Below, one piece after another: positions 30,945-57,704 of a DNA stretch of 64,000 bases; the first letter of the stretch is position 1, and each line of letters begins with the position of its first letter. The position numbers were made by a program, and so were the translations under genes. A model generated the notes under the pieces. The model made no database searches. It was given only the letters and a program-made list of their open reading frames with translations, and had not been told where the DNA came from. The DNA comes from Candidatus Aenigmatarchaeota archaeon. Its GTDB lineage: Archaea > Aenigmatarchaeota > Aenigmatarchaeia > PWEA01. The stretch lies in assembly GCA_003554845.1 (NCBI GenBank), contig PWHK01000020.1, positions 6,895 to 70,894 on the forward strand. The letters run 5' to 3'.

Positions 30945-30954
30945 GGTATAAAAA

Positions 30955-31422: not shown

Positions 31423-31465
31423 TTGAAACTTTAAATAAGTAACACATAAACAATAAAGTGGTAAC

Positions 31466-31963: not shown

Positions 31964-32013
31964 GATATAAAAAGACTTAAAAAGATTAGGATAGAACAAT
32001 AGGTTGTGAAAAG

Positions 32014-33116: not shown

Positions 33117-33887
33117 TTATTCTACAGATTCACGATGGCCGTCGCTGTATTCTTCATCATCGGATGATTCATTGTCCCTGCGTTTGTTCTTTGTTATCTT
33201 CGGGAGAAACTCCTTGAAGGCCTTTTCCAGTGAACTCACCCTCGATCCAATACCTTCAAGACGGGAAGAAACATCGTCTATATCATATTCTATTTCTTCT
33301 AAATTATCATCCTGCCTTTCCTTTATACTATCTATCTCATCTCTGAGATCCTCTATCTCAGCAACTATCTCTTCTCTCCCCTCCATAAACTTCTCAAGAT
33401 CCTTCTCCACATTAGACCACTTTTCATCTATTATCTCCTCTACAAGTATCTCGAGCTCTATCTCCTCCTCTTCGGTCATGAAAGCCTCGGTTTGTGGAGA
33501 CGGGGGAGTCCTGCTACCACGCTGTCCACCTCCCTGGTTTGAAAAAGACGAAGACGGCTGGGGAGCAACAAATGTATTTTCAGAAAAATCGTTGGCTGGC
33601 TCAGACCTATCAGCAGGAGCCTCTTCGTCAAGTTTCGGTGATCTGCGGGCAACCTGTGATTCACCAGTAGAACTTGAAACCTTGTTTTTGAGTACCTTGT
33701 TCATGCTCCTCTCTATCCTGTCGTTCGGATACCCCATACTCTTGAGTTCATTTATTATCTCCATCTCCGAATAGCCCTGGGAAGCAAGCCTCCTGACCTC
33801 TCCACTAGGCGATCCTAAACCAGAAGAATCAAAACTATCGTCCTTGTCACTTTCTCCGTCCTTACTCTTACCAAAACCAAGAACCAT
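33117..33887 (-). CDS. hypothetical acidic coiled-coil protein
   Basis: 256 aa. Ser-rich N-terminus and strongly acidic coiled-coil C-terminus. Confidence 0.4.
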   Translation of the reverse strand: MVLGFGKSKDGESDKDDSFDSSGLGSPSGEVRRLASQGYSEMEIINELKSMGYPNDRIERSMNKVLKNKVSSSTGESQVARRSPKLDEEAPADRSEPANDFSENTFVAPQPSSSFSNQGGGQRGSRTPPSPQTEAFMTEEEEIELEILVEEIIDEKWSNVEKDLEKFMEGREEIVAEIEDLRDEIDSIKERQDDNLEEIEYDIDDVSSRLEGIGSRVSSLEKAFKEFLPKITKNKRRDNESSDDEEYSDGHRESVE

Positions 33888-33892
33888 GTTAC

Positions 33893-34294
33893 CTACTTCC
33901 TCTTTTGAAGCTCTTCTTTAATAAGTCTTTTCACTTCGTCCTCGGTAACAAACTCCGTTTCCATAGGTGAAAGAAGGTTTATGAAATTCTTTACCTCTTC
34001 GAACTCGGCCCTCCTGGGAACATCCTCAAGTCTATCCTTTATCTTTGGTATCTTGTTCTCTATCTTGAGTATTCTCATGAGAAGTTCATCCAGACCGTCC
34101 TTTACCTTTTCTATATCGTCTCTTTCCCTGTCCTCGAGATCCATTATTCTGTCCTCGAGGGATCTCAATGCAGTTTCCACAGACTTGTTTTCCCTTTCAA
34201 CGTCTCTCAGCCGCCTTGAATTGCCCTTGACCCTTTCGAGAAGCTCCCGTACAATTTCCCTGAGACCTTGATCATCCGCCTCACCAAAAGCCAT
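33893..34294 (-). CDS. hypothetical coiled-coil protein
   Basis: 133 aa. Heptad-like charged pattern. Confidence 0.4.
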   Translation of the reverse strand: MAFGEADDQGLREIVRELLERVKGNSRRLRDVERENKSVETALRSLEDRIMDLEDRERDDIEKVKDGLDELLMRILKIENKIPKIKDRLEDVPRRAEFEEVKNFINLLSPMETEFVTEDEVKRLIKEELQKRK

Positions 34295-34392: not shown

Positions 34393-36675
34393 GTGGTTAA
34401 AATGCCATGTGATTATGAATACAACGAAAAGGAAAACAAGATAGAAGTAAACTGTTCGGGCTGTATATACGGCAGTAGCGTTGCCGACTACGAAGAATGC
34501 ATGGCAAATACAATCGACAAGATTCTCAAAGTCAAGGGAGTAGAGTCGGTGGTATTCAAGAACAGCCGTGAGTACGAGTACCCCTACGAACAGACAAGAA
34601 TTCTAGTGGAAATAGCAGAGGTTCTGGAAGACATAATGAAAGACAAGGGACTGAGGAAGCTTGAACGTATGGATGCACCGGGCTGTAGCCAGTACTTCAG
34701 GGAAAAATACTCTGAGCTCCAGAACATTGTACTTGAGGAGTTCACTAAGGATCCCATAGGAACTTACATAAGGCTGAAGAGGAAGTTGAGGCACATCCGT
34801 ATTCAGATGAAAGAAAACAAGGGTGGTCCCCAGAACAACTGCAGAAAGAAATACCTCGAAGAGATACTCATACCGATAAAAGAAGAGATAGAAAACACAA
34901 GGATGATACAGGGTGTAAAGGACCAGCTCTCCGGATACCGGCCCGGGAGAAGGGATGCATACAGAGAACTTTTCTATCCTTCCGTAAGGCCAAACTTCAT
35001 GCGAACAAAGTATATGAGACAGGCCCCTGAAAGTGGAAAGAAGTTGGAGCACTACAACATAGGAAGTTCCGATGTGGACATATACGATCTCCCGGATGAA
35101 ACAAGACCCATGTACCACTTTTCTCCACCGGAGTTCAAACTCGAAGAGGAGGAGTACAAGATACTAGACGAGGCTCAGAGATACCTCAGTGAACACAGAC
35201 CACAGACAACAGAATTTGCCGACTCAAAGAGAACAAGAGAAGTATTTTCTTCTATAGGAAGAGATCTTGTAAAGGATATAGCAAGAAGGAAGAGTGTCGA
35301 TCTTGAAAACGAACAGGTAGAAAGACTAACATCTATACTCGGTAGATACACAGGAGGACTGGGCATACTCGAGGCCATACTCGAAGACGAAAGAATACAG
35401 GACATATACGTGAACTCTCCCATAGGCAGCAAGCCTATATTTGTAAACCATGGAGATTACGGCGAGTGCAAGACAAACATAATTCCAACACAGGACGATG
35501 CAGAAAGCTGGGCAACAAAGTTAAGGCTTTCAAGTGGAAGGCCACTGGACGAGGCCAATCCTGTCCTTGATTCATCTGTAGAAGTACCCGGTGGAAGTGC
35601 AAGAATTACAATAATAGCTCCGACGCTCTCTCCACAAGGAATGGGCTTTGCAATAAGAAGACACAGAGAGGACCCGTGGACATATCCCCTCTACCTGAAG
35701 CCCGATGTAGGCTACTTCAGTCCACTCTTCACCGGTCTGATGAGTTTTGTAATAGACGGTGGAAGAAGTTTTCTTATAGGAGGTGGCAGAGGATCGGGTA
35801 AGACTTCACTCCTTGGAGCTTCCCTCATGGAAATGAAAAAGGACTGGAGAATAATAACAAGCGAAGACACTCTAGAACTTCCTGTAAACAGACTCAGGGA
35901 GCTGGACTACGACGTACAGAACCTAAAATCAAGGTCTGTTATAACACAGGTCGAAACCGAACTTCCTGCATCCGAGGCAATAAGAACAGCCCTCCGTCTT
36001 GGTGACTCTGCTCTCATAATGGGTGAAGTCAGGTCAAAGGAAGCAAAGGCACTCTACGAAGCCATGCGTATAGGAGCCATGGCAAAGACTGTAGCAGGAA
36101 CCATACATGGTGAATCGGCATACGGTCTCTTCGACCGTGTTGTAAACGATCTCAACGTACCGAAGACATCGTTCAAGGCCACCGATCTAATTGTAATATG
36201 TAATAGGATAAAGAGCGCCTCAGGACTCCATGAAATGAGGAGGGTAACAAATGTGACAGAGGTCAGAAAACACTGGTCCGATGATCCAAGGGCAGAAGGA
36301 GGATTTGTTCCCCTAATGGAATATTCGGCAGAAGACGACGAACTAAAGCCTACAAATACACTCCTAAACGGCGAGTCTGAAATTCTCAATAGAATATCTT
36401 CCCAGGTAAAGGACTGGGCAGGAAGGTGGGACAGAGTCTGGGACAATATAGAACTCAGGGCTAAGGTCAAGGAGGCCGTAACGGACTATGCCCTAAAGAC
36501 AGGGAACGAAGAGATTATGGAAGCTCCCTTTGTTGTAAAGAGTAACAGTAAGTTCCGACTTACCATGGACGAAGTAAAGAATGAGATCGGGTATATAGAT
36601 CCTGACGAAACATTCGATAGATGGGAAAAATGGCTCAAGGAGCAGATAAAGACAGGTGAGTTCAAGAATGCCTAA
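34393..36675 (+). CDS. type II/IV secretion-system ATPase (FlaI/ArlI / GspE / TadA family) with long N-terminal extension
   Basis: Walker A GGGRGSGKTS, the following TSEDTLEL box, and Walker B ALIMGEVR, all in the C-terminal half of a 760 aa protein. GTG start. An ATG at 34402 is also possible. Confidence 0.8.
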   Translation: MVKMPCDYEYNEKENKIEVNCSGCIYGSSVADYEECMANTIDKILKVKGVESVVFKNSREYEYPYEQTRILVEIAEVLEDIMKDKGLRKLERMDAPGCSQYFREKYSELQNIVLEEFTKDPIGTYIRLKRKLRHIRIQMKENKGGPQNNCRKKYLEEILIPIKEEIENTRMIQGVKDQLSGYRPGRRDAYRELFYPSVRPNFMRTKYMRQAPESGKKLEHYNIGSSDVDIYDLPDETRPMYHFSPPEFKLEEEEYKILDEAQRYLSEHRPQTTEFADSKRTREVFSSIGRDLVKDIARRKSVDLENEQVERLTSILGRYTGGLGILEAILEDERIQDIYVNSPIGSKPIFVNHGDYGECKTNIIPTQDDAESWATKLRLSSGRPLDEANPVLDSSVEVPGGSARITIIAPTLSPQGMGFAIRRHREDPWTYPLYLKPDVGYFSPLFTGLMSFVIDGGRSFLIGGGRGSGKTSLLGASLMEMKKDWRIITSEDTLELPVNRLRELDYDVQNLKSRSVITQVETELPASEAIRTALRLGDSALIMGEVRSKEAKALYEAMRIGAMAKTVAGTIHGESAYGLFDRVVNDLNVPKTSFKATDLIVICNRIKSASGLHEMRRVTNVTEVRKHWSDDPRAEGGFVPLMEYSAEDDELKPTNTLLNGESEILNRISSQVKDWAGRWDRVWDNIELRAKVKEAVTDYALKTGNEEIMEAPFVVKSNSKFRLTMDEVKNEIGYIDPDETFDRWEKWLKEQIKTGEFKNA

Positions 36676-38731
36676 GGACCCGAAAAAGGGGGATGGTTAT
36701 CCCAAGGAAGAAGGTCTGAGGATGCCTGAAAACAAGGAGAGGAGTTTCAAATCGAGGGAATATGAGACATTTCTAGAAGAGGAAAGAGAGCAGAAAAAAC
36801 TTTCGATATATGAAAAAATGTGCAATATTTCTGAGAATATAATCGTTGTGGAACCAGACGAGGAAAAGAAGAAGGAGATAGAACGATCAATAAACATGAC
36901 GTATATGAACATCACTCCGGCGGGCGCCTATTCCTTTGCTATCTTATTCGGAACCGCCATCTTTGTTATTTCGATAATGCTGATGATACTCGGTATTGCT
37001 TCGATGGTATTCGGCATTCTCATGTTCGTACTGGGTGCCGTTTCTATATATCTTCTTTCAGAATATCCCAACTCACAGGCCAGGTTATTCCGTGTAAAGG
37101 CAGCCGATCAGATAATGCTTGCTATAATCTATATGGTTATCTACATGAGAACTTCCCCTAATCTCGAAGGAGCCATAAAGTTTACTGCTAAGCATCTTGG
37201 TGAACCACTATCCATGGACTTCAAAAAACTACTATGGGATGTAGAAACAGGTAACTATATATCGATGAGAGAAGCCCTTGGAGACTATCTCGAAAAGTGG
37301 GAAGACAACAAGGCATTTGTAGAATCAGTCCAGATAATTCAGGACTCCATGCAACAGACAGGAGAAAAAAGGAAGAGAATGCTCGACGAAGCAATAAACA
37401 CTATGATGACAGGATCCAGGGAGATGATGAAAAACTACTCGAATAAACTCGAGCTTCCTGTGCTCGTAATACATGCCCTTGGTATAATGCTTCCTATCAT
37501 GGTCCTAATAATGTTTCCTATAATAATGCTGATGTTAGAAGAAACCATAAGACCTGCGTTCCTTATAATAGGATACAACATTGTCCTGCCTCTCATAATA
37601 TACCTAACAGGAAAAAGAACTCTGGAGTACAGGCCCATGGGATTTTCGGAGCCGGATATATCAAAACATCCTGATCACATTCCCTCTGGAATGATAAACA
37701 TCGGAGGTAAGGAGATAAAGATATGGCCTATATCTGTTCTTCTGTCGGTTCCTGTAATACTTATAGGAATATACCTGGTCAATTTCTATGGAGGTGGGGA
37801 CATATCAACCCAACTCTACACATCTCTATTCATAACCCTTGGAATAGCCCTGGGCCCTTCGACCTACTTCTATCTGGACTCAAGTGCCAAGCTGAAGCTA
37901 AGAAAGGAGGTGAAGGACATAGAAGATGAGTTTTCAGAATCTCTTTTCTCTCTGGGCAACATACTCAATCTCGGCAAGCCCATGGAAAGAGCTTTGGAAG
38001 AAACTGCAGTAAAAAATAAAGACATGGACATATCAAATATGTTCGAAATAGTTGTAAACAATATCAAAAAAGGTGGCATGAACATAAGAAGAGCCTTTTT
38101 TGACAATAAGTATGGGGCTGTGTGGCATTATCCATCGAATCTCATAATATCCGTCATGAAAATAGTTATGGATGCAGCAGAGAAGGGCTCGGATGTAGTT
38201 TCCAGATCAACTATATCCATATCAAAGTATCTACAGCAGCTCGATGAGATAGAAGAAGATCTTAAGAACATGCTCTCGTCTGAAACCACTTCCATGCAGT
38301 TTCTGGGAACATTTTTGGGGCCCTTCGTAGCAGGAGTTTCTGTGGCCATGGCTGCTATAATGATATCAATATTCCACGGCGTGGGTGGTTCATTGGATGC
38401 ACTGGCAGGACCAAGGACTTCACCAGGAGTAGGTGGAATCGGCGGGATGGGGCTCAATGAAGGTCTGGTAGGTGGATGGGGCTCGGCGGAAAATATGATA
38501 CCTATACCATGGATACAGGTAGTCGTAGGTCTCTACGCTATTCAGACATCCTACCTTCTATCGATGCTGACATCCGGTATAGAAAACGGACCGGGTGATG
38601 AGATCAAAAAAAGACGTAATGCAGCCATAATGATTTTGATAGGTGTAGTAGTTTACGGTCTTTCGATAGCCGTTGTTTGGGAGATCTTCGGAGGACAGAT
38701 TTCAGGACTTCTGTCTGCTACTATAAACTAA
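36656..38731 (+). CDS. polytopic membrane platform protein (FlaJ/TadC-like, T2SS-F-like) - tentative
   Basis: 691 aa with about 9-10 TM helices and cytoplasmic loops. Overlaps the ATPase gene by 20 nt. Assignment rests on genomic context and topology. Confidence 0.5.
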   Translation: MSSRMPKDPKKGDGYPKEEGLRMPENKERSFKSREYETFLEEEREQKKLSIYEKMCNISENIIVVEPDEEKKKEIERSINMTYMNITPAGAYSFAILFGTAIFVISIMLMILGIASMVFGILMFVLGAVSIYLLSEYPNSQARLFRVKAADQIMLAIIYMVIYMRTSPNLEGAIKFTAKHLGEPLSMDFKKLLWDVETGNYISMREALGDYLEKWEDNKAFVESVQIIQDSMQQTGEKRKRMLDEAINTMMTGSREMMKNYSNKLELPVLVIHALGIMLPIMVLIMFPIIMLMLEETIRPAFLIIGYNIVLPLIIYLTGKRTLEYRPMGFSEPDISKHPDHIPSGMINIGGKEIKIWPISVLLSVPVILIGIYLVNFYGGGDISTQLYTSLFITLGIALGPSTYFYLDSSAKLKLRKEVKDIEDEFSESLFSLGNILNLGKPMERALEETAVKNKDMDISNMFEIVVNNIKKGGMNIRRAFFDNKYGAVWHYPSNLIISVMKIVMDAAEKGSDVVSRSTISISKYLQQLDEIEEDLKNMLSSETTSMQFLGTFLGPFVAGVSVAMAAIMISIFHGVGGSLDALAGPRTSPGVGGIGGMGLNEGLVGGWGSAENMIPIPWIQVVVGLYAIQTSYLLSMLTSGIENGPGDEIKKRRNAAIMILIGVVVYGLSIAVVWEIFGGQISGLLSATIN

Positions 38732-38779
38732 AGGAGCAAAACAATAAAAACAAGGTAAAATAAGGTTTATCTGGACCCT

Positions 38780-40009
38780 ATGAAACCTCTAAACGACCAG
38801 AAAGGATCTTCTGTCCTTATTATAATAGTAGTCGGGGTAATAATTATACTCATAGCAGGCAGCCTTGCGACTGTGATGATGAGTCGTATTGCCCAGGACG
38901 TGCTTGGACAAAGTGTCATGTGTGATACTTTTTGTGAGATGCAGTCCACTGTAGAAGAAGTGACAACACTGGATTTTATGCCAAGTCATGGTCCAACCGG
39001 TACATTCATTTTTACACTGGGGTTGGGACCGGCGGGATTAGCTGGATCCAAAGTATGGAACTGGATAGTAGGAGAAGTAGGAAGAGATAGAGAAGATGTT
39101 GCAAGGGATCTGGCAATAGATTACCTAATCCGACCCGAAGGCATGGGTTGTTACTGTGGCGTGTCCGATGCCAGAGGAAAGTATATACACTTTCTGACAC
39201 CCGGTCCTAGCTCAACCAGGCCACATGTGGCCGAGTTCCACCTAACAGAACAGACTCCGGAAAAACATCTCCAAGAAGAGATAATAGATACAGATGGAAA
39301 CACTATATTCAAACACGGTGGTTATGGCCAAAAAAGTAACTGTGAAGATGAACTTAGTAAGATAGATGAACTTGACAACGGTGAGTACTTGGCCGAACTC
39401 GATATATATCCCGGATGTATAATACTTTCAACCACCGATGACAACTGTGCAATATGGGCATTCGATGAAACCTTCGCAATAACCAACGAAGAAGGAAAGT
39501 CCATAAGGGAACAGGCCGAAGAACAGGATAAAATCATATTCGCTAGCACGATAAGGTCCGATGACCCCGTAAACAGCCTGGGTATTGCAGAAGAGATAGA
39601 GGCAAGTGGCAGACACGACTCCCAGAGGATGCTCCTCGAGCATTACGAAGAGGGTATACACCCCTTCCAGGTTTACTTACCTGTGGTCTGTAAATCAGAG
39701 GAAAGAACTGAAAGACGTGTCCAGGATCCACTTGACAGGGCATGTAGAGAACAGTGCCATGACGGAAACACACTTCTATGGGCTTCCAGGTGTTTCGAAG
39801 GACCAGAAGATGCCGGAGAAATCTACCGTCCTCTGGAGGAAGATTTTCTTCCGGAAGACTATGATGAAACCAGGGACCTGTGCCCTGTGGAAGACGATGA
39901 AAATGAAGAGGAAGAAAGTAACGACGAAGATCGTGGTTATCCCTTCTGCCTCTGTAACACTCCCCGAAGTTATTCATGGGAACTAGATGAAGAATACACA
40001 GAGATATGA
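38780..40009 (+). CDS. class III (prepilin-like) signal peptide protein, large cysteine-rich paralog 1
   Basis: MKPLNDQKG|SSVLIIIVVGVIIIL. Shares GCYCGV, HDSQRMLL, PVVCKS, RACREQC and PFCLC ... YSWE motifs with 40033 and 41282. Confidence 0.55.
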   Translation: MKPLNDQKGSSVLIIIVVGVIIILIAGSLATVMMSRIAQDVLGQSVMCDTFCEMQSTVEEVTTLDFMPSHGPTGTFIFTLGLGPAGLAGSKVWNWIVGEVGRDREDVARDLAIDYLIRPEGMGCYCGVSDARGKYIHFLTPGPSSTRPHVAEFHLTEQTPEKHLQEEIIDTDGNTIFKHGGYGQKSNCEDELSKIDELDNGEYLAELDIYPGCIILSTTDDNCAIWAFDETFAITNEEGKSIREQAEEQDKIIFASTIRSDDPVNSLGIAEEIEASGRHDSQRMLLEHYEEGIHPFQVYLPVVCKSEERTERRVQDPLDRACREQCHDGNTLLWASRCFEGPEDAGEIYRPLEEDFLPEDYDETRDLCPVEDDENEEEESNDEDRGYPFCLCNTPRSYSWELDEEYTEI

Positions 40010-40032
40010 TATCTTGAATTTTTGTGATGTAA

Positions 40033-41136
40033 ATGATTGACGAAAAAGGCAGTTCATTTCTATTCATAATAGTTGTAGCTATAATCTTATCTCTGATCGT
40101 TGGTTCTTTAATTACAGGTGCATTTGCTATGACAGTAAGGACTGTGGTCGGAACCGATCTTTCCTGTCCGACCTTCTGTGCAGTTCAAGCAGACATAGAG
40201 GAATACAGCATGGCAGATATAATGCTACCATCCGTACTACCATTCATAGAGGAAAGCTCGGATGGAATTGCCCATAAAGTAGCAGACTGGATAATACAGC
40301 CAGAAGGACTCGGTTGTTACTGTGGTGTCAAAGAAAGAAGTGGAAGATACATTCATTTTCACACAGGTCCTCCTGGAGAAAGGTCAATAAGAGAACTTCA
40401 CTTGACGGATCAGGACCCACACATACATCTCGACTATCATGTCGGGGATTCCGATGGAAACACATTATTCGACCACAGCTTCGACAAGAGCAACTGCGAG
40501 GAAGACATAAACAGTTTAAAAGAGGTACAGTACTACCAAGACGTCGGCTGTGTAATCGTGGTTAACTCCGACGGAGGATACTGCTCTATACATGTAATAG
40601 GAGAAGGTTCGGTTATAGAAAACAACATAGGTGAAAGTATACAGGATCAGGTTGAAATCAGGGAAACATTAACGACAAACTACGACGAAAACGATCCTAT
40701 TTCGTTTTTTGAAATCGGCGACAGATACAACGTACCTCGATTTGTACATGAAGAAGGAGATATTCTAACATACACGATAGGAGGCCAGCCCTACCAGCAC
40801 GACTCCCAGAGGATGCTCCTCCGGGACTACGACGAATACCTAGGAGCTAAGTTCGCTCTCTATGCTCCTGTTGTCTGCAGAACCTCGGTAGCAGAAGGAC
40901 AGGAAGTTCAGACAAAACTTGATGAAAAATGCAGAGAACAGTGCAAAGAAGACAGGAAGATTTTTCTGTCTTCTGCATGCCATGATATTCCCAGGGAAGG
41001 ATACAAACCGCTACGTGATGAACACCACGAAGAAGACACTTTCTGTGAAAAGGAGGGTAAAGGTCCGTACTGCAGATGTATGCACGAGAAACGGTACTAC
41101 TGGGAGGTAGACGAGGATTATTCGAGAGAAAACTAA
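40033..41136 (+). CDS. class III signal peptide protein, large cysteine-rich paralog 2
   Basis: MIDEKG|SSFLFIIVVAIIL. Same conserved Cys framework. Confidence 0.55.
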   Translation: MIDEKGSSFLFIIVVAIILSLIVGSLITGAFAMTVRTVVGTDLSCPTFCAVQADIEEYSMADIMLPSVLPFIEESSDGIAHKVADWIIQPEGLGCYCGVKERSGRYIHFHTGPPGERSIRELHLTDQDPHIHLDYHVGDSDGNTLFDHSFDKSNCEEDINSLKEVQYYQDVGCVIVVNSDGGYCSIHVIGEGSVIENNIGESIQDQVEIRETLTTNYDENDPISFFEIGDRYNVPRFVHEEGDILTYTIGGQPYQHDSQRMLLRDYDEYLGAKFALYAPVVCRTSVAEGQEVQTKLDEKCREQCKEDRKIFLSSACHDIPREGYKPLRDEHHEEDTFCEKEGKGPYCRCMHEKRYYWEVDEDYSREN

Positions 41137-41168
41137 AAAATAAAAAACAAAATATATTGAATGATACC

Positions 41169-41282
41169 ATGGAAGCAAATATTTCGGTCCTGCTCTGGGT
41201 GATGGTAGCTTTTGTCCTATTTGCACTTTTGGTTGTATTTACTGCCATGTTCTTTGCCGATACATTTGGGATTTTGATATAA
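41169..41282 (+). CDS. small hydrophobic ORF (37 aa, MEANISVLLWVMVAFVLFALLVVF ...)
   Basis: Single TM helix. Its TAA stop overlaps the ATG of the next gene (TAATG). Confidence 0.3.
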   Translation: MEANISVLLWVMVAFVLFALLVVFTAMFFADTFGILI

Positions 41283-42571
41283 TGAAAAACAACATGATCA
41301 ATCAAAAGGGAGCATCGGTAGTTGCCCTGTTTGTAATAATAATTATAATGGTGAGTGCATGGGTTTTAATACAAAGTATAGGCCCCATAACCAGAGCTTC
41401 TATGGAAACCGAGGTATCATGTCCCCTCTTCTGTGATATACATTCAGGCGTGGAGGAATACTCTAGATGGGCATGGTGGCCTGGGTGGCTAGGAGGAAGT
41501 GTAAGCTGGTCCGATATATTTACGAACGAACTCAGAAAAAACATGGTGGAGCCTAAATCAATGGGCTGTTACTGTGGTGTCCAGGAAGAAAGGGGGAAGT
41601 TTATTCACTTCCAGGGAACTACCAGCAGTCTATATGAATTCCACATGACCGATCAGGATCCACTAATGCATCTTCGTATGAAAGCCGATCCGTTTGATCA
41701 CAGACCATCTGATGAATCAACGGTTGAATCATGCCGGTTAGTTGTAGAAAACTACGGAGAACAGTTCAGCCCACCTGTATATGATCCAACCGATCTTCAC
41801 AAGGTTCAGGGATGTATAATTGTTTCTGAATCACCAGGCTGTGCAGTATGGGTATTTGGAGAAGGTTTTTCGATAAGAAGAGATTCAGAGAATTCTATCT
41901 GGGAACAGGCACAGGAACAGGAAAGAGACATAGAAGCCTTTTCCATAGATAGAGGAGAAGACCCTGTTTCAGATCTAAATATAGGCGAAACTATACATGT
42001 CTCGAGTTCAAAGGACCCCTCTCAGAGAATGCTCCTCCGGGAATATGAAAGCGGCGACCGAGATTTCAATCTCTCTACATCCGTGGTATGTAAAAGCATT
42101 GAAACAGCTAAAACAATGCCCACAGATCAACTGGACAGGGCTTGCAACGAATACTGTTCGGACAAGGGTCTCTTCTTTCTAAACTCTGCTTGTCTACAAG
42201 AAAAAAGAAGGGGTTACAATACTCTCCCTGAAGAGTACATAGAACAAGAGAGGAGTGATCTCTGCCCTGAAACAGGAGAACTCCCCTTCTGCCTCTGTGC
42301 TGGTGAAAAGGAATACTACTGGGAAACATACTGGGAAGATTTTTATACAATAACGGTAGAAACCCAGGGTAGTGGAACCGTTGATATCAACCCCGATCTA
42401 GACGAATACTACAGAGGTCAGGGAGTATTACTGGAAGCAGAGGCGGACAACGAATGGGAGTTCAGCCACTGGGAAGGCAACTATCCCACTGGACAAAAAG
42501 AAGATTCGGAGATAACGATAACAGTAGATGGTAACATGGTGCTTAGTGCTGTATTTGAATCAGAGCATTGA
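41282..42571 (+). CDS. class III signal peptide protein, large cysteine-rich paralog 3 (extra C-terminal domain)
   Basis: MKNNMINQKG|ASVVALFVIIII. Carries GCYCGV, PSQRMLL, VVCKS, RACNEYC and PFCLC ... YYWE motifs. Confidence 0.55.
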   Translation: MKNNMINQKGASVVALFVIIIIMVSAWVLIQSIGPITRASMETEVSCPLFCDIHSGVEEYSRWAWWPGWLGGSVSWSDIFTNELRKNMVEPKSMGCYCGVQEERGKFIHFQGTTSSLYEFHMTDQDPLMHLRMKADPFDHRPSDESTVESCRLVVENYGEQFSPPVYDPTDLHKVQGCIIVSESPGCAVWVFGEGFSIRRDSENSIWEQAQEQERDIEAFSIDRGEDPVSDLNIGETIHVSSSKDPSQRMLLREYESGDRDFNLSTSVVCKSIETAKTMPTDQLDRACNEYCSDKGLFFLNSACLQEKRRGYNTLPEEYIEQERSDLCPETGELPFCLCAGEKEYYWETYWEDFYTITVETQGSGTVDINPDLDEYYRGQGVLLEAEADNEWEFSHWEGNYPTGQKEDSEITITVDGNMVLSAVFESEH

Positions 42572-42633
42572 GATCCCTCATTAGATTAAAACTTATAACA
42601 CATAGCCAACATGTATAATATGAGGATGTTTGC

Positions 42634-42816
42634 ATGGAAAGAAATTCTAAATATATCTTTTCCAGTGGTGAGATAAGCATACAGGTCGTAATCATAATAA
42701 TACTCATGTTGATAGGACTCACTGTTGTCCTTATAATATCATCCGGTGTCGGTGGTTTTGGAACAAATGTATCATCGAATATAATGGGATATCTAGCAGA
42801 TGCTATAGGTGCATGA
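42634..42816 (+). CDS. small pilin-like protein (60 aa)
   Basis: Short polar N-terminus then a long hydrophobic helix. Confidence 0.35.
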   Translation: MERNSKYIFSSGEISIQVVIIIILMLIGLTVVLIISSGVGGFGTNVSSNIMGYLADAIGA

Positions 42817-42818
42817 AA

Positions 42819-42971
42819 ATGGAATACGATAAAAAAGGTTTTATAAGTATAATTATGCTTCTGATCATAGCACTTGTGGCACTATCGGTGGGTCTTATGC
42901 TTATACATGCCTTTTGGGGAGGCGGAGGAGGCTTGTTGAATCTACTCATTCAGAGACTCCAAATGGTATAG
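42819..42971 (+). CDS. small pilin-like ORF (about 50 aa, MEYDKKG|FISIIMLLIIALV)
   Basis: Translated by hand. KKG-hydrophobic class III-like start. Not in the supplied track (under 60 aa). Confidence 0.3.
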   Translation: MEYDKKGFISIIMLLIIALVALSVGLMLIHAFWGGGGGLLNLLIQRLQMV

Positions 42972-42979
42972 GTGAAAAA

Positions 42980-43126
42980 ATGTCTATATTCAACGATACG
43001 CTTATAATTTTTCAAAAAAACACAAAGATAATATTCGCCTTAATAGTTTTTGCCCTTCTTATAGGTATACTTTACTACACAATAAATCCTCTGATAGACA
43101 CGTTAATGGGGGCTATAGGTTATTGA
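42980..43126 (+). CDS. small membrane ORF (48 aa)
   Basis: MSIFNDTLIIFQKNTKIIFALIVFALLIGILYY ... Confidence 0.3.
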   Translation: MSIFNDTLIIFQKNTKIIFALIVFALLIGILYYTINPLIDTLMGAIGY

Positions 43127-43127
43127 T

Positions 43128-43844
43128 ATGAACATAATCAACAAGAAGGGTTCAAGATCGCAGAGCGAGTTCATATTTCTTGCAATAAAGGCAGTAATAG
43201 GTATCTTGGCTATAGGTGTTATTGCATTGAGTGTCAGGGGCATGGAGACAGGCTGTAGTACACATGACGAAAATCCATCGGCATGTATAAGCAATACAGA
43301 ATGCAGACCTGCGGTCAGAAGAGAAAAAAGCACATTTTCTATACCTGTTGATATTATGCGGTCTGTAGATATAGTCTATCATACAGAAATAACCGGCGAT
43401 ATAGAATGTCGGGATTCCATAAGGACTCCCAACAACAGATACCACGCCGCAGAGGATGCTCAGTGTGTCTGTCCTGTTGGGTGGGAAGTAATTTTAGACA
43501 GAGAAGATCAGTACTATGGAGTCTGTAGGCTACCAGGAACCAACAACTATCACCCATGTGAGTATCCACCCGACGGCGAACGACAGGAAACAGAATTCAA
43601 AGACATGTGTGAAGATGGAGATAGATACCACGGAGAAGTCTGGATCGACGGAACAGATGAAGAAGCTCCAAATATGTGCTGCGATGATGGAGATACAAAA
43701 GAGTGTGACTCCGATAACATAGATGAAAAATGTGGTGATCTGGTCTGTATTGAAATAGAGGTTGAAGTCGAAGACGGAGAAGAGGAAGAAATCACTTTCT
43801 GGATAGATGAAGAGAGTGTACCTGATATAGAATACATAATTTAA
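43128..43844 (+). CDS. class III signal peptide protein, cysteine-rich mid-size paralog A
   Basis: MNIINKKG|S ... GCSTHDENPSACISNTECRPAV and YHGEVW ... CCDDGDTKEC shared with 43872. Confidence 0.5.
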   Translation: MNIINKKGSRSQSEFIFLAIKAVIGILAIGVIALSVRGMETGCSTHDENPSACISNTECRPAVRREKSTFSIPVDIMRSVDIVYHTEITGDIECRDSIRTPNNRYHAAEDAQCVCPVGWEVILDREDQYYGVCRLPGTNNYHPCEYPPDGERQETEFKDMCEDGDRYHGEVWIDGTDEEAPNMCCDDGDTKECDSDNIDEKCGDLVCIEIEVEVEDGEEEEITFWIDEESVPDIEYII

Positions 43845-43871
43845 AATACACAAAATAAAAAATGAAGCAGA

Positions 43872-44528
43872 ATGTTTTCAAAAAAAGGTACTGCTAAATC
43901 ACAGGAAGAAACACTTTGGTTTATAATCAAGATAGCTATAGTAATCATAGGATTTGTAATTCTAATTGTTGCTTTTCTTAGGATGGAGGCAGGCTGTAGC
44001 AGGCATGATGAAAATCCATCGGCATGTATAAGCGACGAGAGCTGTAGACCTGCAGTTAAAGAGGTGGACTCAGGATGGGACATATATGCATCACTGTATG
44101 GATCATACCGAACGGAAGTGGTGGGTAAGATAGAGTGCAAAGAATCCGTAAGAAAACCTGATACAAGACACCACGCAGCCCATGATGGAAAATGTATATG
44201 CCCGGGTTTCTGGGAAGAAATTATAGACAGAAATCATGACTACTTCGGTGTATGCTATACTGATTACAATGGAGAAGAAATGTACTATCCTTGTCAGTAT
44301 GGCCTAAATGTTCAGGTCGAGGAAATAAAGGACAGTTGCGAAAGCGTTGAAAAATACCACGGAGAAGTATGGGGCTCCGGTTGGAATACCCCCGATAGAT
44401 GTTGCGATGACGGCGAAGTAAAGAAATGTAATATACTCAACAGTGGTGAAACTTGCGCAGACTATACATGCAGATCTGGCCCAGCCAAGCATCAGGTTGT
44501 CGATATCCAGTACTACTGGCAGCCATAA
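43872..44528 (+). CDS. class III signal peptide protein, cysteine-rich mid-size paralog B
   Basis: MFSKKG|T ... GCSRHDENPSACISDESCRPAV and YHGEVW ... CCDDGEVKKC. Confidence 0.5.
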   Translation: MFSKKGTAKSQEETLWFIIKIAIVIIGFVILIVAFLRMEAGCSRHDENPSACISDESCRPAVKEVDSGWDIYASLYGSYRTEVVGKIECKESVRKPDTRHHAAHDGKCICPGFWEEIIDRNHDYFGVCYTDYNGEEMYYPCQYGLNVQVEEIKDSCESVEKYHGEVWGSGWNTPDRCCDDGEVKKCNILNSGETCADYTCRSGPAKHQVVDIQYYWQP

Positions 44529-44572
44529 ACTGCAGTGCACCTTTCAAAAAGATTTAAACAAACACAACAAAG

Positions 44573-44995
44573 TTGTATACGATGAACACCCCAGCAAAGG
44601 GCATAGGCGTAGGAAAATCCCTTACGTTAATACTGATACTGGTTATTCTCTTGTTTACAACCGTCTTAATAGGTGATATATTTACATCCGTGCTTGGTAT
44701 GGGCGTAGGAGATGAGTTCCACATTACAATGGGAGAATTATCTGTATCCTACACTACATCTAGCTCTTTTCAGGAAAAAACTGTTATAGAAGAAAATCTT
44801 CCGATGGCCTGCGAAAAAGTTGTATTTAGAAACAGCACACTAAAGGCCTACCTGGAACATGATGAATTTTACTTTATACCATATACCACACAAGAAATGG
44901 ATAAAGACTTTGAGGTGGAATGTGATTCCTTTGGTAGGGTAAAGTTTATTGACGGAAGGATAGAATCATCTAGCCCTGTCGCTGGAACATTTTAA
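44573..44995 (+). CDS. pilin-like protein (140 aa)
   Basis: MYTMNTPAKG|IGVGKSLTLILILVILLF. Confidence 0.45.
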   Translation: MYTMNTPAKGIGVGKSLTLILILVILLFTTVLIGDIFTSVLGMGVGDEFHITMGELSVSYTTSSSFQEKTVIEENLPMACEKVVFRNSTLKAYLEHDEFYFIPYTTQEMDKDFEVECDSFGRVKFIDGRIESSSPVAGTF

Positions 44996-44997
44996 TT

Positions 44998-45888
44998 ATG
45001 GTGCATAAAATGAAAAACAAAGGAACAACCGGAGGAGACTACATATGGCAGATACTGTTTGTTATAGTAACGATAACCTATCTTGGTGCCTTTTATGTTA
45101 TATTTATAGCCGGTTCAACAGTAGATGTCGAAGGTTTTGAAAGAACCCAGGGAAGACTACAGAGTTCCGCTGCCCACACCAGACTTTTGTCACATCCCGA
45201 TTTTATTTCTACAGGAGAGATCGGCGTATTCGATGAATCACTTCTCAATTCCAAGAACGGCACAGAGAAGCTAGAAGAACTCTACAACCCATCGCTCTGG
45301 ATTTATGTAGAGATAGAAAACATGGAAAACGACGATAAATACATATTTGGTACACCCGGGCCCCTGAAAGCAACGGAAGGATGGTTGACTGAGGATGGGA
45401 ATATGGATACATGGGAAGATGAAGAAATGAGTTCCTGGGATCACGTGGTCGGTAGATACAGTACATTAGTAAACATAGACACCGGCGACGGATTCGATCT
45501 AGCTAAACTATATCTTTACTTCCGGCAGATACCCGACCCTATGATAAAGTTAAAGGAGGGTATTCATATAGCCAGGGAAGAAGGAAGCCATACAGTTACA
45601 CTTTTGCACCCAATCGCGATATGCTGGGAGTACGACTACACGCTATCGGGAAGATACTGCTCAGAAGACGAAGATTCCTTTTCAATAGACGTAAGCCACT
45701 CAGATAAAATAAAGGGTAGTTTTGGTGGATACATGCACCTGAAAGACGTAGAGTTGAAGGCATTCAACGAGGAAGAGGAAAAGTTCGAGATAGACCCGCC
45801 CGGTAGGTTCACGGATGGAAAAATAGACATAGAACTTGCTCATACCGGCGGTAAAACGGTAGAATATGAAATAGTTGACAGATGGTAA
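44998..45888 (+). CDS. pilin-like protein (296 aa)
   Basis: MVHKMKNKG|TTGGDYIWQILFVIVTITYLGAF. Confidence 0.45.
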   Translation: MVHKMKNKGTTGGDYIWQILFVIVTITYLGAFYVIFIAGSTVDVEGFERTQGRLQSSAAHTRLLSHPDFISTGEIGVFDESLLNSKNGTEKLEELYNPSLWIYVEIENMENDDKYIFGTPGPLKATEGWLTEDGNMDTWEDEEMSSWDHVVGRYSTLVNIDTGDGFDLAKLYLYFRQIPDPMIKLKEGIHIAREEGSHTVTLLHPIAICWEYDYTLSGRYCSEDEDSFSIDVSHSDKIKGSFGGYMHLKDVELKAFNEEEEKFEIDPPGRFTDGKIDIELAHTGGKTVEYEIVDRW

Positions 45889-46420
45889 AATGAAAAAATT
45901 AATCGGTAGAAAGGGTGGCTTTATGGTCTTGTTAGCCACGCTTATATTCACCGCCGTGTTCTTAATTACTCTGTTTATAGTCGGTCCCTTTATAGGAGGG
46001 GCGCAGATGGAAATAGAAGTAATGTCAGAAAATCCCGCCGGATTCAGCATAGAGAAAAACACACTTCTCAGAACCAATGAAACAAAAAGAAAACTTATGG
46101 CTTTTGGTGAGGGAGATGAATCAGTAGACGAATCCATCGCCAGGACAAGCGACAAATTCGGTGGGACCTATTCGGATTCCCATATACTACTTTTTAGGTT
46201 CGAAAAGGATGATGATGTAGAGATAGTCGGTTTTTCGTGTTCGGATGGATGTGGATACATAGAAGGATATGAAGAAGAGATGGATATTATCTTAAAAAAT
46301 TCAGAAGTAGTAGCACCGAGACCCATAATGTTACCAAAAGGCAAGATGGGATCCTCATATTCTGTCTACTTCAACCCCGAGGAAATGGCCGCACGGGTTA
46401 TGCAAGGCACACAATATTAA
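45875..46420 (+). CDS. pilin-like protein (181 aa)
   Basis: GRKG|GFMVLLATLIFTAVFLITLFIV. Overlaps the previous gene by 14 nt. Confidence 0.45.
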   Translation: MTDGKMKKLIGRKGGFMVLLATLIFTAVFLITLFIVGPFIGGAQMEIEVMSENPAGFSIEKNTLLRTNETKRKLMAFGEGDESVDESIARTSDKFGGTYSDSHILLFRFEKDDDVEIVGFSCSDGCGYIEGYEEEMDIILKNSEVVAPRPIMLPKGKMGSSYSVYFNPEEMAARVMQGTQY

Positions 46421-46427
46421 TGATAAA

Positions 46428-46985
46428 ATGTTAGGAAACAAGGGATTGAAAATTACGATATTAGTTTTCTCGGCAGTATTGATAGGCGTTACCTTAGCAA
46501 CAGCGGTAGTTGTGGGTGTAATGACGTACCACGGAGAGGAACAGTCCTGGTTCGGACAGGGTGAAAGAGTTACAGCAAAGGTCCAGTACGATCATGCACT
46601 GGGTGCAGTAGAAGATTCGTTTTTACTGGGTATATACTGGGGTATACAGGAATCAGGCAATGACTGGGAAAATGCAGAAGAATCCATCGAGGAAGAAATA
46701 GAAGAAAAAATAAAGCATTATTTGGATAGGATAGAAGGTTTTTACGAAGGTAGTTATGATACGCAACCCATCTATCTTGAAACAAGAATACGGATCGATG
46801 ATGTTGAAATTGAATTATACTTAGACGAAGAAACCATAGACAGTGTAAAGATGTCAGGTAATATGACTTCCTACAGGAACCAGCCCTCGATAGCAATATC
46901 CGATGATTTTTACATCGAAGAAAACTTCCAGGAAAACTACTCAACGCTCTATGATATGTCAAATAATCCATTAGAAAATATGTAA
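46428..46985 (+). CDS. pilin-like protein (185 aa)
   Basis: MLGNKG|LKITILVFSAVLIGVTLA. Confidence 0.45.
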   Translation: MLGNKGLKITILVFSAVLIGVTLATAVVVGVMTYHGEEQSWFGQGERVTAKVQYDHALGAVEDSFLLGIYWGIQESGNDWENAEESIEEEIEEKIKHYLDRIEGFYEGSYDTQPIYLETRIRIDDVEIELYLDEETIDSVKMSGNMTSYRNQPSIAISDDFYIEENFQENYSTLYDMSNNPLENM

Positions 46986-47020
46986 ATTTTATAAGAAAGG
47001 GAGGGTCATTTAACATTAAG

Positions 47021-48001
47021 ATGAAGGAAAAGGGGTTCATGTTTGGAATAACACCGGTCGTTCTTTTAATCCTAGGTGGTTTGGTCGTGCTTGTATTTTC
47101 CGTGGGATCGGGAACCTTTTTGGAAATTTCTGAAGGTCTTATAGATGTAGGAGAGGAGGAGGCAAGAAGGGTCCACAGGAGATTTAAATATCCTATCTTG
47201 AGACATGAACTTCCAGAGGAAGGATTTCCCGATGAAGGATCGGGACAGGTTGTGACCTCCTGTAGATCCATAGGATCAGAGGGTTCTTATCAACTACAGG
47301 ACTCTATAGAATGCCCTGATCACGAACCAATCGAAGAGTTCAGGGGAACGCTGGATGGCCGTGGACATGAAATATCCGATCTAAATGTACCTCTATTTGA
47401 AATGATATCATCGGAGGGCACTGTGAAAAACATTAGAGTTTCAGGGGTGGATATACATCAAGAAGACTCCGCAGGCGGTCTTTCGGTGACAAACCAAGGA
47501 ACAGTTGAAAGGGTACATGTTTCCGGAACAGTTCAGGGCGGAAGCTATGTTGGTGGCCTTACTGGAATAAACAGTGGAAATATAAGGAAATCTTCCTCCA
47601 CGGCAGACGTAGGTGGAACAATCAATGTAGGAGTACTGGTAGGACAACATACCTCCGGCTCCGTAATAAATTCATATACGATCGGTTCTGTAAAAGGCAT
47701 ATCAAATGTAGGCGGATTAATAGGTTCTGGAAGTGGAGAAGTAGATAAAACATATGCAGCCAGTTATGTAGATGGTTCTACCAATGTACAAGGGTTGGTA
47801 GGATCTGGTTCTGCCAATTCAGTTAAAAACTCCTTCTGGAGCACTGACACATCTGGAATTCTCCCTGAAGAAATTTCTGGGAGTATTATAGGAACGCCGA
47901 AAGTCGACGAAGCCATGGAAGACAAGGAAATCTATGTTTCCACGAGAACGGATGGTCTAGAAGAGCCATGGGACTTCGATGAAATATGGACCATGGGGTA
48001 A
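47021..48001 (+). CDS. pilin-like protein with GLUG-type glycine-rich repeats
   Basis: MKEKG|FMFGITPVVLLILGG. Then about four ~27-aa repeats containing GGLTG / GGLIG / QGLVG, ending FWSTDTSG, as in GLUG-motif surface proteins. Confidence 0.55.
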   Translation: MKEKGFMFGITPVVLLILGGLVVLVFSVGSGTFLEISEGLIDVGEEEARRVHRRFKYPILRHELPEEGFPDEGSGQVVTSCRSIGSEGSYQLQDSIECPDHEPIEEFRGTLDGRGHEISDLNVPLFEMISSEGTVKNIRVSGVDIHQEDSAGGLSVTNQGTVERVHVSGTVQGGSYVGGLTGINSGNIRKSSSTADVGGTINVGVLVGQHTSGSVINSYTIGSVKGISNVGGLIGSGSGEVDKTYAASYVDGSTNVQGLVGSGSANSVKNSFWSTDTSGILPEEISGSIIGTPKVDEAMEDKEIYVSTRTDGLEEPWDFDEIWTMG

Positions 48002-48002
48002 A

Positions 48003-48164
48003 ATGAACTACATTCTTTCAAAAAAAGGGCTACAGTTCCATATTCTACTTTACATAATACTGGGACTTATCGTACTAACTATCATCGCTACCCAAGCACT
48101 AACCACAGAAGGATTCTTCGATGGGTTTTCCGATCTACTTAGGGAGATTATATTTTCAAGCTAA
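48003..48164 (+). CDS. small pilin-like protein (53 aa)
   Basis: MNYILSKKG|LQFHILLYIILGLIVL. Internal Met of the listed ORF chosen as start. Confidence 0.35.
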   Translation: MNYILSKKGLQFHILLYIILGLIVLTIIATQALTTEGFFDGFSDLLREIIFSS

Positions 48165-48208
48165 GTTAAACCATAAGTTTTAAATCAGACAGTCGATAAG
48201 GTTTAACC

Positions 48209-48466
48209 ATGAAAATCAAGTCCGGGAAGAGATTAAAGCCTCTGTACCTCGGAGCTCTGGTTTTAAGTTTGATAGTGATCCTTTCCATAATAGTTTTAAG
48301 CCTGGATATAACAGAGGGGCCCACCAAAGAAGATGAACTAAGCCGTTCTTGTGTAGGCTACCTCCAGAGAAACTGTTGCAGTAATCCAGAAATAGGTCGG
48401 TGCCAAGAGTTTGAAAACGAATTATGGACACACCAAGAAGATCCGTTTGATATATGTTGTGAATAA
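48209..48466 (+). CDS. small cysteine-rich membrane-anchored protein (85 aa)
   Basis: N-terminal TM helix and 7 Cys in the C-terminal 40 aa. Confidence 0.4.
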   Translation: MKIKSGKRLKPLYLGALVLSLIVILSIIVLSLDITEGPTKEDELSRSCVGYLQRNCCSNPEIGRCQEFENELWTHQEDPFDICCE

Positions 48467-48469
48467 ATA

Positions 48470-48781
48470 ATGTCAACTAAAAAAGGCTTAGGAGGCTCAA
48501 TTAGAATCGTCGTAGTATCAATAATCGTACTTGTTATTTTGTTCCTTGTTGCCACTTTTTTTGTCACAGGAAGTGAAGAACTGACGGAAATGGGGTTCCG
48601 CGGAAAGACCGAACTGGCCTGCCATAGATTCGAAACCAGGGGATGCTGCATAAACTACGATGAAGAGGATCCCGGACAGTGTGCTGTAGACAAGATATGG
48701 GAAGGCTACAACGAAGAAGAAATGGACGAAGAAGAATTAGAAAAACTGGAGGAAGTCGACTGGGAAGAAAAATGCTGCTGA
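48470..48781 (+). CDS. small cysteine-rich pilin-like protein (103 aa)
   Basis: MSTKKG|LGGSIRIVVVSIIVLVILF. Acidic Cys-rich tail ending CC. Confidence 0.45.
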   Translation: MSTKKGLGGSIRIVVVSIIVLVILFLVATFFVTGSEELTEMGFRGKTELACHRFETRGCCINYDEEDPGQCAVDKIWEGYNEEEMDEEELEKLEEVDWEEKCC

Positions 48782-48790
48782 GGGGATAAA

Positions 48791-49060
48791 ATGATTTCAA
48801 AAAAAGGTCTTGCGCTTCCGGTTACGATAATAATAGTCTTAGTTATATCCATTATAGTTCTGCTTATACTGATTACATTCATGGGATGGGGATGGGAAAC
48901 GGGGCCTATAAACCAGACACAGGAAGGAATAGACGAACAGTACGAAGAACAAGACCCTCTAGGAGATATATTCAACTCGACGCAAAATCACCACAGGACA
49001 TCAAAACACACACACAGGCCTGGTATACATACGGTGGAGGAATGGTTGGATGCTCGATAA
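48791..49060 (+). CDS. pilin-like protein (89 aa)
   Basis: MISKKG|LALPVTIIIVLVISIIVLL. Confidence 0.45.
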   Translation: MISKKGLALPVTIIIVLVISIIVLLILITFMGWGWETGPINQTQEGIDEQYEEQDPLGDIFNSTQNHHRTSKHTHRPGIHTVEEWLDAR

Positions 49061-49358
49061 AAGGGGTATAGAGCTTTCAATAAGGTTAATAGTTATTCTG
49101 CTTATCTCCACAATAGTACTTCTAGCAGTTCTCGTATTTTTCGGCAATGTGTGGGATACAAGTCCATTTGAACATGCCATGGGAAACTTAACGGAACAGC
49201 AGTCAGATCTAGGCAGTAAAAATCTCGGTGGTTTTGGAAGGATGGTGCGCCTGCCGGGATTTTCAGAGACATTGGAAAGATCAATGCTTCCTTTGAACCC
49301 GGGCTTCGAGCATGGGAGGCTCGAGTCCTACCAGACTAGACCACAGGCGCATATTTAG
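49050..49358 (+). CDS. pilin-like protein (102 aa)
   Basis: MLDKRG|IELSIRLIVILLISTIVLL. Overlaps the previous gene by 11 nt. Confidence 0.45.
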   Translation: MLDKRGIELSIRLIVILLISTIVLLAVLVFFGNVWDTSPFEHAMGNLTEQQSDLGSKNLGGFGRMVRLPGFSETLERSMLPLNPGFEHGRLESYQTRPQAHI

Positions 49359-56171: not shown

Positions 56172-56177
56172 CAAGAG

Positions 56178-57449: not shown

Positions 57450-57694
57450 TAAACATAGGATGGATAGGAGCTCTGCTGCTTTTGGCTGCATGGATGCCCG
57501 AAACGATAACGACAATGAAAAGCGAGAGTCTTGAAGCACTGAACCCCAAGTTTATATTCTTCAGCTTTCTCGGATCGGTTTCACTTGCGCTCCATTCCTA
57601 CAGAATAGGCGACATGGCCTTTCTCTTTATGAACACAACTCTGTCTATAGTTGTTGCCATAGAACTCGCAGTTTATTTTTATAAATCAAACTAA
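57437..57694 (+). CDS. small membrane protein (85 aa) between rbcL and the AMP phosphorylase gene
   Basis: MGSIINIGWIGALLLLAAW ... with 3 TM helices. Overlaps the rbcL stop by 13 nt. Confidence 0.35.
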   Translation: MGSIINIGWIGALLLLAAWMPETITTMKSESLEALNPKFIFFSFLGSVSLALHSYRIGDMAFLFMNTTLSIVVAIELAVYFYKSN

Positions 57695-57704
57695 CTCTTT
57701 AGTT

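Follow-up and report, generated by a model that had tools for sequence, protein, structure and literature searches.

The window analysed here, a stretch of 64,000 nucleotides, harbors a compact set of 20 genes between positions 34393 and 49358, all encoded on the + strand and separated by gaps of -61 to +62 nt. The first of them (34393..36675, +) encodes an ATPase of 760 aa belonging to the FlaI/TadA/VirB11 superfamily (Pfam T2SSE, 7.7e-14), which was matched by the NCBIfam models for FlaI (3.5e-40) and TadA (1.3e-33), neither of which reached its family cut-off. The second gene product (36656..38731, +) is a polytopic, TadC/FlaJ-like membrane platform protein of 691 aa, matched by Pfam T2SSF slightly under the cut-off (3.5e-5). 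The platform gene adjoins the ATPase gene also in the related lineages L004, L005, L010 and L013, and both genes are kept in order and on the same strand in L004 to L006, L010 and L013. Downstream of this gene pair, 18 ORFs form an array on the same strand (38780..49358, +), of which 15 encode proteins with [KR]G at residues 4 to 9 followed by a hydrophobic segment. Nearly all of these pilin-like genes were without a matching model in Pfam and NCBIfam, and no prepilin peptidase of the Peptidase_A24 type was found among the scanned ORFs of the window. An ATPase of the FlaI/TadA type, a platform protein and a variety of pilin-like genes are the features of known type IV pilin-like loci; judged by its gene content, this region is a type IV filament locus in which pilin-like genes are unusually numerous. 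This agrees with the sequence-only reading, a previous annotation by a model that had seen the letters and the ORF translations, in which the two genes studied here were assigned to a pilin cluster.

These two genes, termed A and B in the following, are neighbors within the array. Gene A (43128..43844, +; 238 aa) starts 1 nt past the stop codon of a preceding small ORF, and gene B (43872..44528, +; 218 aa) is located 27 nt downstream of A. Small proteins encoded just upstream of A (42634..43126) are candidates for the major subunits of the filament. Both ORFs have the lengths and positions previously reported for them, and both gene products consist of a pilin-like N-terminus and an ectodomain with 14 cysteines. 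The sequence blocks that had been described as common to the pair, GCS[T/R]HDENPSACIS, CRPAV, YHGEVW and CCDDG.x.K.[EK]C, were all found in A and B. In BLASTP, the alignment covers residues 3-207 of A and 1-200 of B, with 92 identities in 208 positions (44%), 61% positives and an E-value of 4e-56. Since it spans nearly the full length of both proteins, the similarity reaches far beyond the short blocks; a limitation to these blocks, which would have refuted the previous proposal, is not observed. On this alignment, A and B are true paralogs. The number of cysteines, previously given as about 16 in each protein, had to be corrected to 14, and all 14 are located in common alignment columns. The ectodomains have a cysteine content of 7.0-7.8% compared to 1.07% in 39 other ORFs of the window, an approximately sevenfold enrichment over the window background (binomial p about 1e-8).

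The other cysteine-rich proteins of the locus were compared with the pair as well. The 14-cysteine paralogs encoded upstream (38780..42571) were considered as homologs of the A/B family and rejected, as only 12 columns at the junction of helix and first cysteine could be aligned by hhalign (probability 57%); the duplication which gave rise to A and B is thus separate from that of the upstream genes, as had been proposed. In addition, p85 and p103 were considered as a third pair rich in cysteines. The two proteins match each other in BLASTP with an E-value of just 0.15, and paralogy was not established for them.

Both proteins begin with xKKG and a hydrophobic segment, in accordance with the K-K-G start and hydrophobic helix described before. 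In A, residues 1-8 (MNIINKKG; 43128..43151, +) form a short basic leader that closes with the invariant K-G, a candidate processing site for a class III (prepilin-type) peptidase. The K-G is located at residues 7-8 in A and 5-6 in B and was found in all family members that were aligned or listed. A polar spacer of six residues ending at the conserved Glu14 separates the leader of A from the helix core, which was assigned to residues 15-36 by hydropathy scan and AlphaFold2 (AF2; 43170..43235, +) and contains a conserved lysine, K21. In all members, the Gly is followed by an acidic residue (E/D) at +6/+7, an aromatic residue at a distance of another two to three residues and a hydrophobic helix with K, E or H at about +13/+14. 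In the AF2 models a helix of 28-30 residues extends over residues 11-38 of A (pLDDT 79-92) and 9-38 of B. The hydrophobic core of approximately 22 residues with its internal conserved lysine begins 4-6 residues past the Gly in A and B, unlike in most of the remaining pilin-like ORFs in this locus, where it begins immediately after the K-G. Cleavage is therefore less certain for A and B than for the neighboring ORFs. From the N-terminal helix alone, we infer a topology with the N-terminus inside and the ectodomain outside.

The ectodomain is composed of two cysteine-rich modules. The N-module of A comprises residues 40-153 (43245..43586, +) with eight cysteines (C43, 53, 59, 94, 113, 115, 133 and 144; assigned from the family alignments), and that of B residues 39-150 (43986..44321, +; C42, 52, 58, 89, 108, 110, 128 and 141). 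The C-module with six cysteines comprises residues 158-208 in A (43599..43751, +; C161, 184, 185, 193, 202 and 207), in which the YHGEVW and CCDDG motifs are located, and residues 153-201 in B (44328..44474, +; C156, 177, 178, 186, 195 and 200). A ends with a very acidic tail (residues 208-238, IEIEVEVEDGEEEE...; 43749..43841, +), for which AF2 predicted two beta strands (205-213 and 219-227) and which is absent from B. The cysteine pattern common to the family members reads GC-x9-C-x5-C-R-P ... C-x-x-[AS]-[VIM]-R-x-P-[ND] ... C-x-C-P ... Y-Y-G-x-C ... C-x-Y.

Family members are found in two sizes, short forms with the N-module only and long forms with an additional segment of six cysteines (YHGEVW ... 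CCDDG ... C ... C ... C). The N-module is thus the part that all members have in common, and complete short forms of 123-134 aa (L012, L013 and L015), in which the C-module is absent, stop few residues past the eighth cysteine. The family member of L013 belongs to the short forms, and the C-module is instead found in this lineage on the ortholog of p296, a pilin-like carrier encoded further downstream in the locus. The N-terminal 160 residues of this ortholog match p296 of the window (E=1e-31), while its approximately 75 C-terminal residues match B from residue 134 onward, with the C-module included (E=2e-8, BLASTP). The C-module is therefore separable and located on different pilin-like carriers across lineages; it is a module grafted onto a pilin-like protein, which is the defining trait of modular type IV pilins. 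The previous description of A and B as surface-exposed modules is thereby borne out with respect to modularity, seen in both the eight-cysteine short forms and the L013 carrier. The exposure at the surface, in turn, is probable.

All 15 members have an even number of cysteines (8, 12, 14 or 16). The only one with 12 (P0004, the first-copy gene product of L005) lacks exactly the 12th and the 14th cysteine. The even counts and the joint loss of two cysteines in P0004 make disulfides likely. The paired loss suggests a bond between C193 and C207 (A numbering), and we infer seven disulfides from the 14 cysteines in A as well as in B. Dense conserved cysteines with CC and CxC doublets might also bind metal or iron-sulfur clusters, in which case the pair would represent extracellular redox or electron-transfer proteins. 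The source sediments were probably anoxic, which makes the formation of extracellular disulfides less self-evident and would fit such a role. The family alignment, in turn, is devoid of CxxC or CxxCxxC spacing and of any invariant histidine, the cysteines are even in number and are lost as a pair, and no metalloprotein family or structure was found to be similar. We therefore regard metal binding as very improbable.

The AF2 models of A and B are of moderate confidence (mean pLDDT 78.7 and 68.1, respectively) and contain, in both cases, a domain following the N-terminal helix that is mostly beta or irregular; the secondary structure elements of B are laid out as in A. Foldseek searches with both models against the PDB and with the A model against BFVD gave nothing at E<=0.001, and no pilin was among the listed matches. 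A pilin-type alpha/beta or beta-sandwich fold is thus not recognizable in the modelled ectodomains, and the fold predicted for them is apparently new. In addition, no Pfam model matched A or B at E<=0.1, no meaningful NCBIfam match was obtained, and the best hit in a sequence-profile search of the PDB had an E-value of 0.71. The N-module has a local pattern, C-x-C-P-x-G-W ... Y-Y-G-x-C, that resembles EGF-like modules. In the EGF signature, C-x-C-x2-[GP]-[FYW]-x(4,8)-C, the last cysteine follows after 4-8 residues, whereas the spacing in A and B is 13 residues. No Pfam EGF model matched at E<=0.1, and the sole EGF match obtained with Foldseek had an E-value of 3.0 and a probability of 0.01.

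With the short basic leader ending in [KR]G and the N-terminal hydrophobic helix, A and B are similar to type IV pilin-like proteins; they differ in the spacer of 4-6 residues, the missing match to Pfam or NCBIfam pilin models and the cysteine-knotted ectodomain without structural neighbor. These differences have to be considered with respect to a second possibility, according to which A and B are not filament subunits at all but uncleaved, signal-anchored membrane proteins whose ectodomains assemble into an accessory complex at the base of the machine, with a role like that of FlaF/FlaG in the archaellum or of bacterial PilN/PilO. FlaF and FlaG are N-terminally anchored partners encoded by adjacent genes. 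Like A and B, FlaF/FlaG (ArlF/ArlG) are encoded next to each other in a TFF-type operon and combine an N-terminal membrane helix with a beta-rich outer domain; however, they are not cysteine-rich, have no sequence or structural similarity to A and B and differ from them in that A and B retain the K-G processing-type motif. The polar spacer, which most pilin-like ORFs of the locus do not have, the conserved charged residue inside the helix, the retention of two related genes side by side and the ectodomain predicted without a pilin-like fold are all compatible with an uncleaved anchor. Nevertheless, all members retain the K-G at the same position as in other proteins of the locus, a conservation that is difficult to account for unless the site is processed or recognized. 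Furthermore, p296, which has a similar spacer, contains a G-x4-[DE]-[YFW] motif like that of Flp/Tad pilins, the C-module was exchanged with another pilin-like carrier, and several lineages have one copy only. An accessory complex of this kind is the less likely explanation, roughly a one-in-four prospect in our estimation.

The family to which A and B belong is small. A profile of both proteins detected 12 proteins at E<=0.001 among 1.84 billion representative proteins (exhaustive HMMER search), and one additional member was retrieved by a word-indexed profile search. The latter type of search returned only A when A was used as query, four proteins with the family alignment and nothing with the C-module alignment, by which the query proteins themselves were missed as well. 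Since the word index is patchy for the A/B family, the exhaustive search of representative proteins was relied on. A protein identical to A (P0001) is encoded on six metagenome or genome contigs. The orthologs in L004 share 86% (A) and 75% (B) identical residues with the proteins of the window. A scan of genomes with an alignment of six sequences revealed relatives only in three MAGs designated 'Candidatus Aenigmatarchaeota archaeon T1Sed10' at NCBI; in one of these (PWEA01000005), the DNA is approximately 80% identical to the window between 33.6 and 52.7 kb. A scan of JGI metagenomes detected the same three soda-lake lineages again and no others, and a scan of viral contigs gave no matches to the family. 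Archaeal pilins are frequently glycosylated; no N-glycosylation sequon is found in 14 of the 15 family members, which counts against pilin subunits. To the extent covered by these searches, the pilin-like proteins A and B form a small family that had not been described before; it is a new family within an otherwise familiar kind of system.

The organism belongs to PWEA01 (GTDB), a halophilic lineage of Aenigmatarchaeota from sediments of Kulunda soda lakes, which has recently been named Haloaenigmatarchaeaceae and has been described as genome-reduced and probably symbiotic (10.1101/2024.03.10.584303; PMC13195033; PMC9765267). High pilin diversity in DPANN loci is reported in the consulted passages of a recent survey of archaeal TFF systems, in which the A/B family is not described (10.64898/2026.04.22.720090).

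Outside of this genome, the same tandem pair was found in the four lineages L004, L005, L006 and L012, so that including the window five lineages harbor it. Four others (L010, L011, L013/14 and L015/16) encode a single copy; the pair is therefore not obligatory for the locus. The gene order is common to the window and L004, L005 and L006: the ATPase and platform genes are followed by those for three large 14-cysteine paralogs, three tiny ORFs, the first copy, the second copy, p137, p296 and onward. The arrangement of the short-form pair in L012 matches. According to the sequence-only reading, the duplication indicates an ongoing diversification of the surface modules. Synonymous sites are saturated between A and B (pS 0.82), so that a dN/dS ratio of the paralogs is not computable; instead, the orthologs were compared to those of L004 by the method of Nei and Gojobori. 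The resulting ratios of 0.137 for A and 0.180 for B point to purifying selection and are in the span obtained for other pilin-like genes of the locus (0.10-0.21). The platform protein has a lower ratio (0.055), and for the ATPase, dS was saturated and no ratio could be computed. Given the presence of the pair in four further lineages, the saturation and the purifying selection, an ongoing diversification is not supported.

A recent gene conversion between A and B was also considered. At residues conserved between both, the fraction of identical codons (0.52) is close to that expected from codon usage (0.46), which rules against it, and the longest run of identical codons comprises eight codons (ENPSACIS) and is not significant (a rough estimate gives about 0.16). 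Saturated synonymous sites and a codon identity near expectation thus indicate that the duplication is old and that no signal of recent conversion is present.

Neighbor-joining trees of about 17 sequences gave a more complex picture. Over the 39-41 columns of the N-terminus, the copies are alike by position: first copies share 42-53% identity among themselves, second copies likewise resemble one another, and first and second copies are just 21-37% identical to each other; the groups formed by position have 50-83% bootstrap support. In the tree of the N-module, however, the A and B copies of the window and L004 form one clade (98% bootstrap). Both paralogs of a lineage also agree in how long the Cys3-Cys4 loop is and in whether they have a C-module. 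The mosaic suggests either one old duplication combined with gene conversion of the ectodomains or a recurrent duplication with retained or convergent N-termini. On their own, the grouping of A and B from the window and L004 as closest relatives in the tree of the N-module, the lineage-specific long Cys3-Cys4 loop in both copies and the faster evolution of B and of the pilin-like genes compared to ATPase and platform would be in line with a surface module that was duplicated recently and is still diversifying, with its copies under relaxed or positive selection. Against this stand the saturation and codon identity mentioned above, the low dN/dS ratios, the occurrence of both copies before the split of window and L004, and the position-specific N-termini common to other lineages. 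A recent duplication is therefore largely refuted, and we consider it improbable.

Taken over all the evidence, the interpretation we favor, with a confidence slightly above even, is that A and B are disulfide-stabilized, modular minor-pilin-like subunits of the adjacent type IV filament which act as non-redundant partners. The N-terminus would be inserted via Sec with the ectodomain outside, and the cut after the Gly would probably be made by a class III signal peptidase whose gene lies in another part of the genome. The helix would then dock the protein into the filament, or at its end, as this filament is assembled by the products of the neighboring ATPase and platform genes. Seven disulfides formed by the 14 cysteines would be what holds a compact head of no known fold, which may serve as the functional surface, most likely in adhesion or recognition, possibly of a host cell. 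Recognition of a host cell by the head is speculative and is suggested by the context of the locus and by analogy with bacterial systems. Since two distinct copies are kept side by side under purifying selection in five lineages, non-redundant partners are probable; A and B might work jointly, for example as adjacent or heteromeric minor subunits. Following an old duplication, the ectodomains would have been kept or made similar in each lineage, and the N-termini would have kept their position-specific signature. An extended version, in which the disulfide-knotted heads have a new fold and are exchangeable between pilin-like carriers of halophilic DPANN archaea and A and B constitute a heteromeric complex at the tip or side of the filament for combinatorial host recognition, is rather unlikely in our view. 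According to this version, gene conversion would homogenize the ectodomains, and the docking N-termini would stay distinct.

Modular subunits of the kind favored here are known from bacterial type IV pili. PilB of Streptococcus sanguinis, in which an adhesion module is grafted onto a pilin module (PMC8179133), is similar to A and B in that an additional C-terminal functional module is attached to a pilin-like N-terminal module. The modular pilins of bacteria carry known domains, for instance vWA or lectin, whereas the modules of A and B are unrelated to these in sequence, without known relatives and archaeal. The PilA-PilC complex of S. sanguinis, which binds glycans at the pilus tip (PMC9934059), is comparable in that several low-abundance pilin-like proteins are encoded together and may act as a complex; the analogy concerns the role only. 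The same limitation applies to ultrasmall Saccharibacteria, in which type IV pili drive episymbiosis (PMC9894109, PMC11623550) and with which the organism studied here shares a small genome and a probable dependence on a host.

DPANN archaea depend on other cells, and the way in which hosts are found and held is poorly understood. The locus provides candidates for surface proteins, encoded as a compact and conserved set, from a halophilic DPANN lineage that was recognized only recently, and the pair is real, rare and unannotated in a lineage in which surface structures matter. If A and B are filament subunits, they exemplify modular pilins in an archaeon; otherwise, they add one pair to the hypothetical membrane proteins that are specific to single lineages. 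Lineage-specific pilin-like genes are common in TFF loci, and in this respect the mechanism proposed for A and B is so far unsurprising.

Outside of the filament locus, the window encodes ordinary archaeal housekeeping functions, among them diphthamide synthesis, L10e, aspartyl-tRNA synthetase and a FEN1-type XPG nuclease. A form III RuBisCO and an AMP phosphorylase are encoded in the window as well, and the window proteins are acidic.

Three tandem paralogs of 409, 367 and 429 aa (38780..42571) have pilin-like N-termini with a K-G motif and contain exactly 14 cysteines each. In an hhalign comparison, these proteins showed no relation to the A/B family, the cysteine-rich pilin-like paralogs encoded in the same filament locus. 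All three are kept in several related loci from other lineages (L004 to L006, L011 and L013), and a single, shorter copy is present in the distant locus L010. The C-terminal end of the third paralog is formed by a Flg_new_2 (InlB B-repeat-like) domain. A predicted ORF of 68 aa (41076..41282) with one hydrophobic helix shares 61 nt with the 3' end of the second paralog, and it is annotated among the genes of the public assembly (locus L001, 7949..8155). Three tiny ORFs of 60, 52 and 48 aa (42634..43126) encode scarcely more than a hydrophobic helix. Their order immediately upstream of the A/B family gene is kept in all related loci including L010, and the products might serve as the major filament subunit(s) or as assembly factors.

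The p296 family, named after a pilin-like protein encoded after gene B (44998..45888) and also found in L010 (12126..13763) and L013 (6875..7852), has an N-terminal K-G followed by x4-[DE]-[YFW], which resembles the G/xxxxEY site of Flp/Tad pilins. The ortholog in L013 carries the cysteine-rich C-terminal module of the A/B family, and the homolog in L010 a Pfam Amidase_3 (N-acetylmuramoyl-L-alanine amidase) domain. A murein amidase domain on a pilin-like protein is an odd pairing in a DPANN-type genome. A 326-aa protein (47021..48001), in which a pilin-like N-terminus (MKEKG and a hydrophobic segment) is combined with GLUG and Peptidase_M26_N-type repeats, is a candidate adhesin-like subunit; its homologs in L013 and L015 are larger (480-734 aa) and show faint or weak GLUG-type matches. 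Two adjoining small ORFs of 85 and 103 aa (48209..48466 and 48470..48781) have hydrophobic N-termini and six cysteines each, including CC doublets. Since their similarity is weak (BLASTP, E=0.15), paralogy is not established.

Synonymous divergence (dS) between the window and L004 is highly uneven across 34393..48781. Synonymous sites are saturated in the ATPase gene, and dS is 1.29 in the platform gene. Lower values were obtained for three genes downstream of these, namely 0.38 for the first 14-Cys paralog, 0.50 for gene A and 0.56 for the gene of p137, a protein encoded between gene B and p296. The unevenness could come from lineages exchanging the pilin-gene cassette or from differing codon constraints.

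Divergently oriented to the ATPase gene, two acidic coiled-coil proteins of 256 and 133 aa are encoded on the minus strand (33117..34294), neither of which has a Pfam match. The smaller one may belong to the filament system, because its position is kept in L005 and L010. Five consecutive small membrane proteins of 155-186 aa (30384..33107) share the motif LPWLLT...YG[IL]LS at an identity of just 15-21% and look like another tandem paralog array. The adjoining genes for a ribose-1,5-bisphosphate isomerase-like protein (IF-2B family), a form III RuBisCO and an AMP phosphorylase-like protein (55317..59189) constitute the archaeal AMP salvage pathway.
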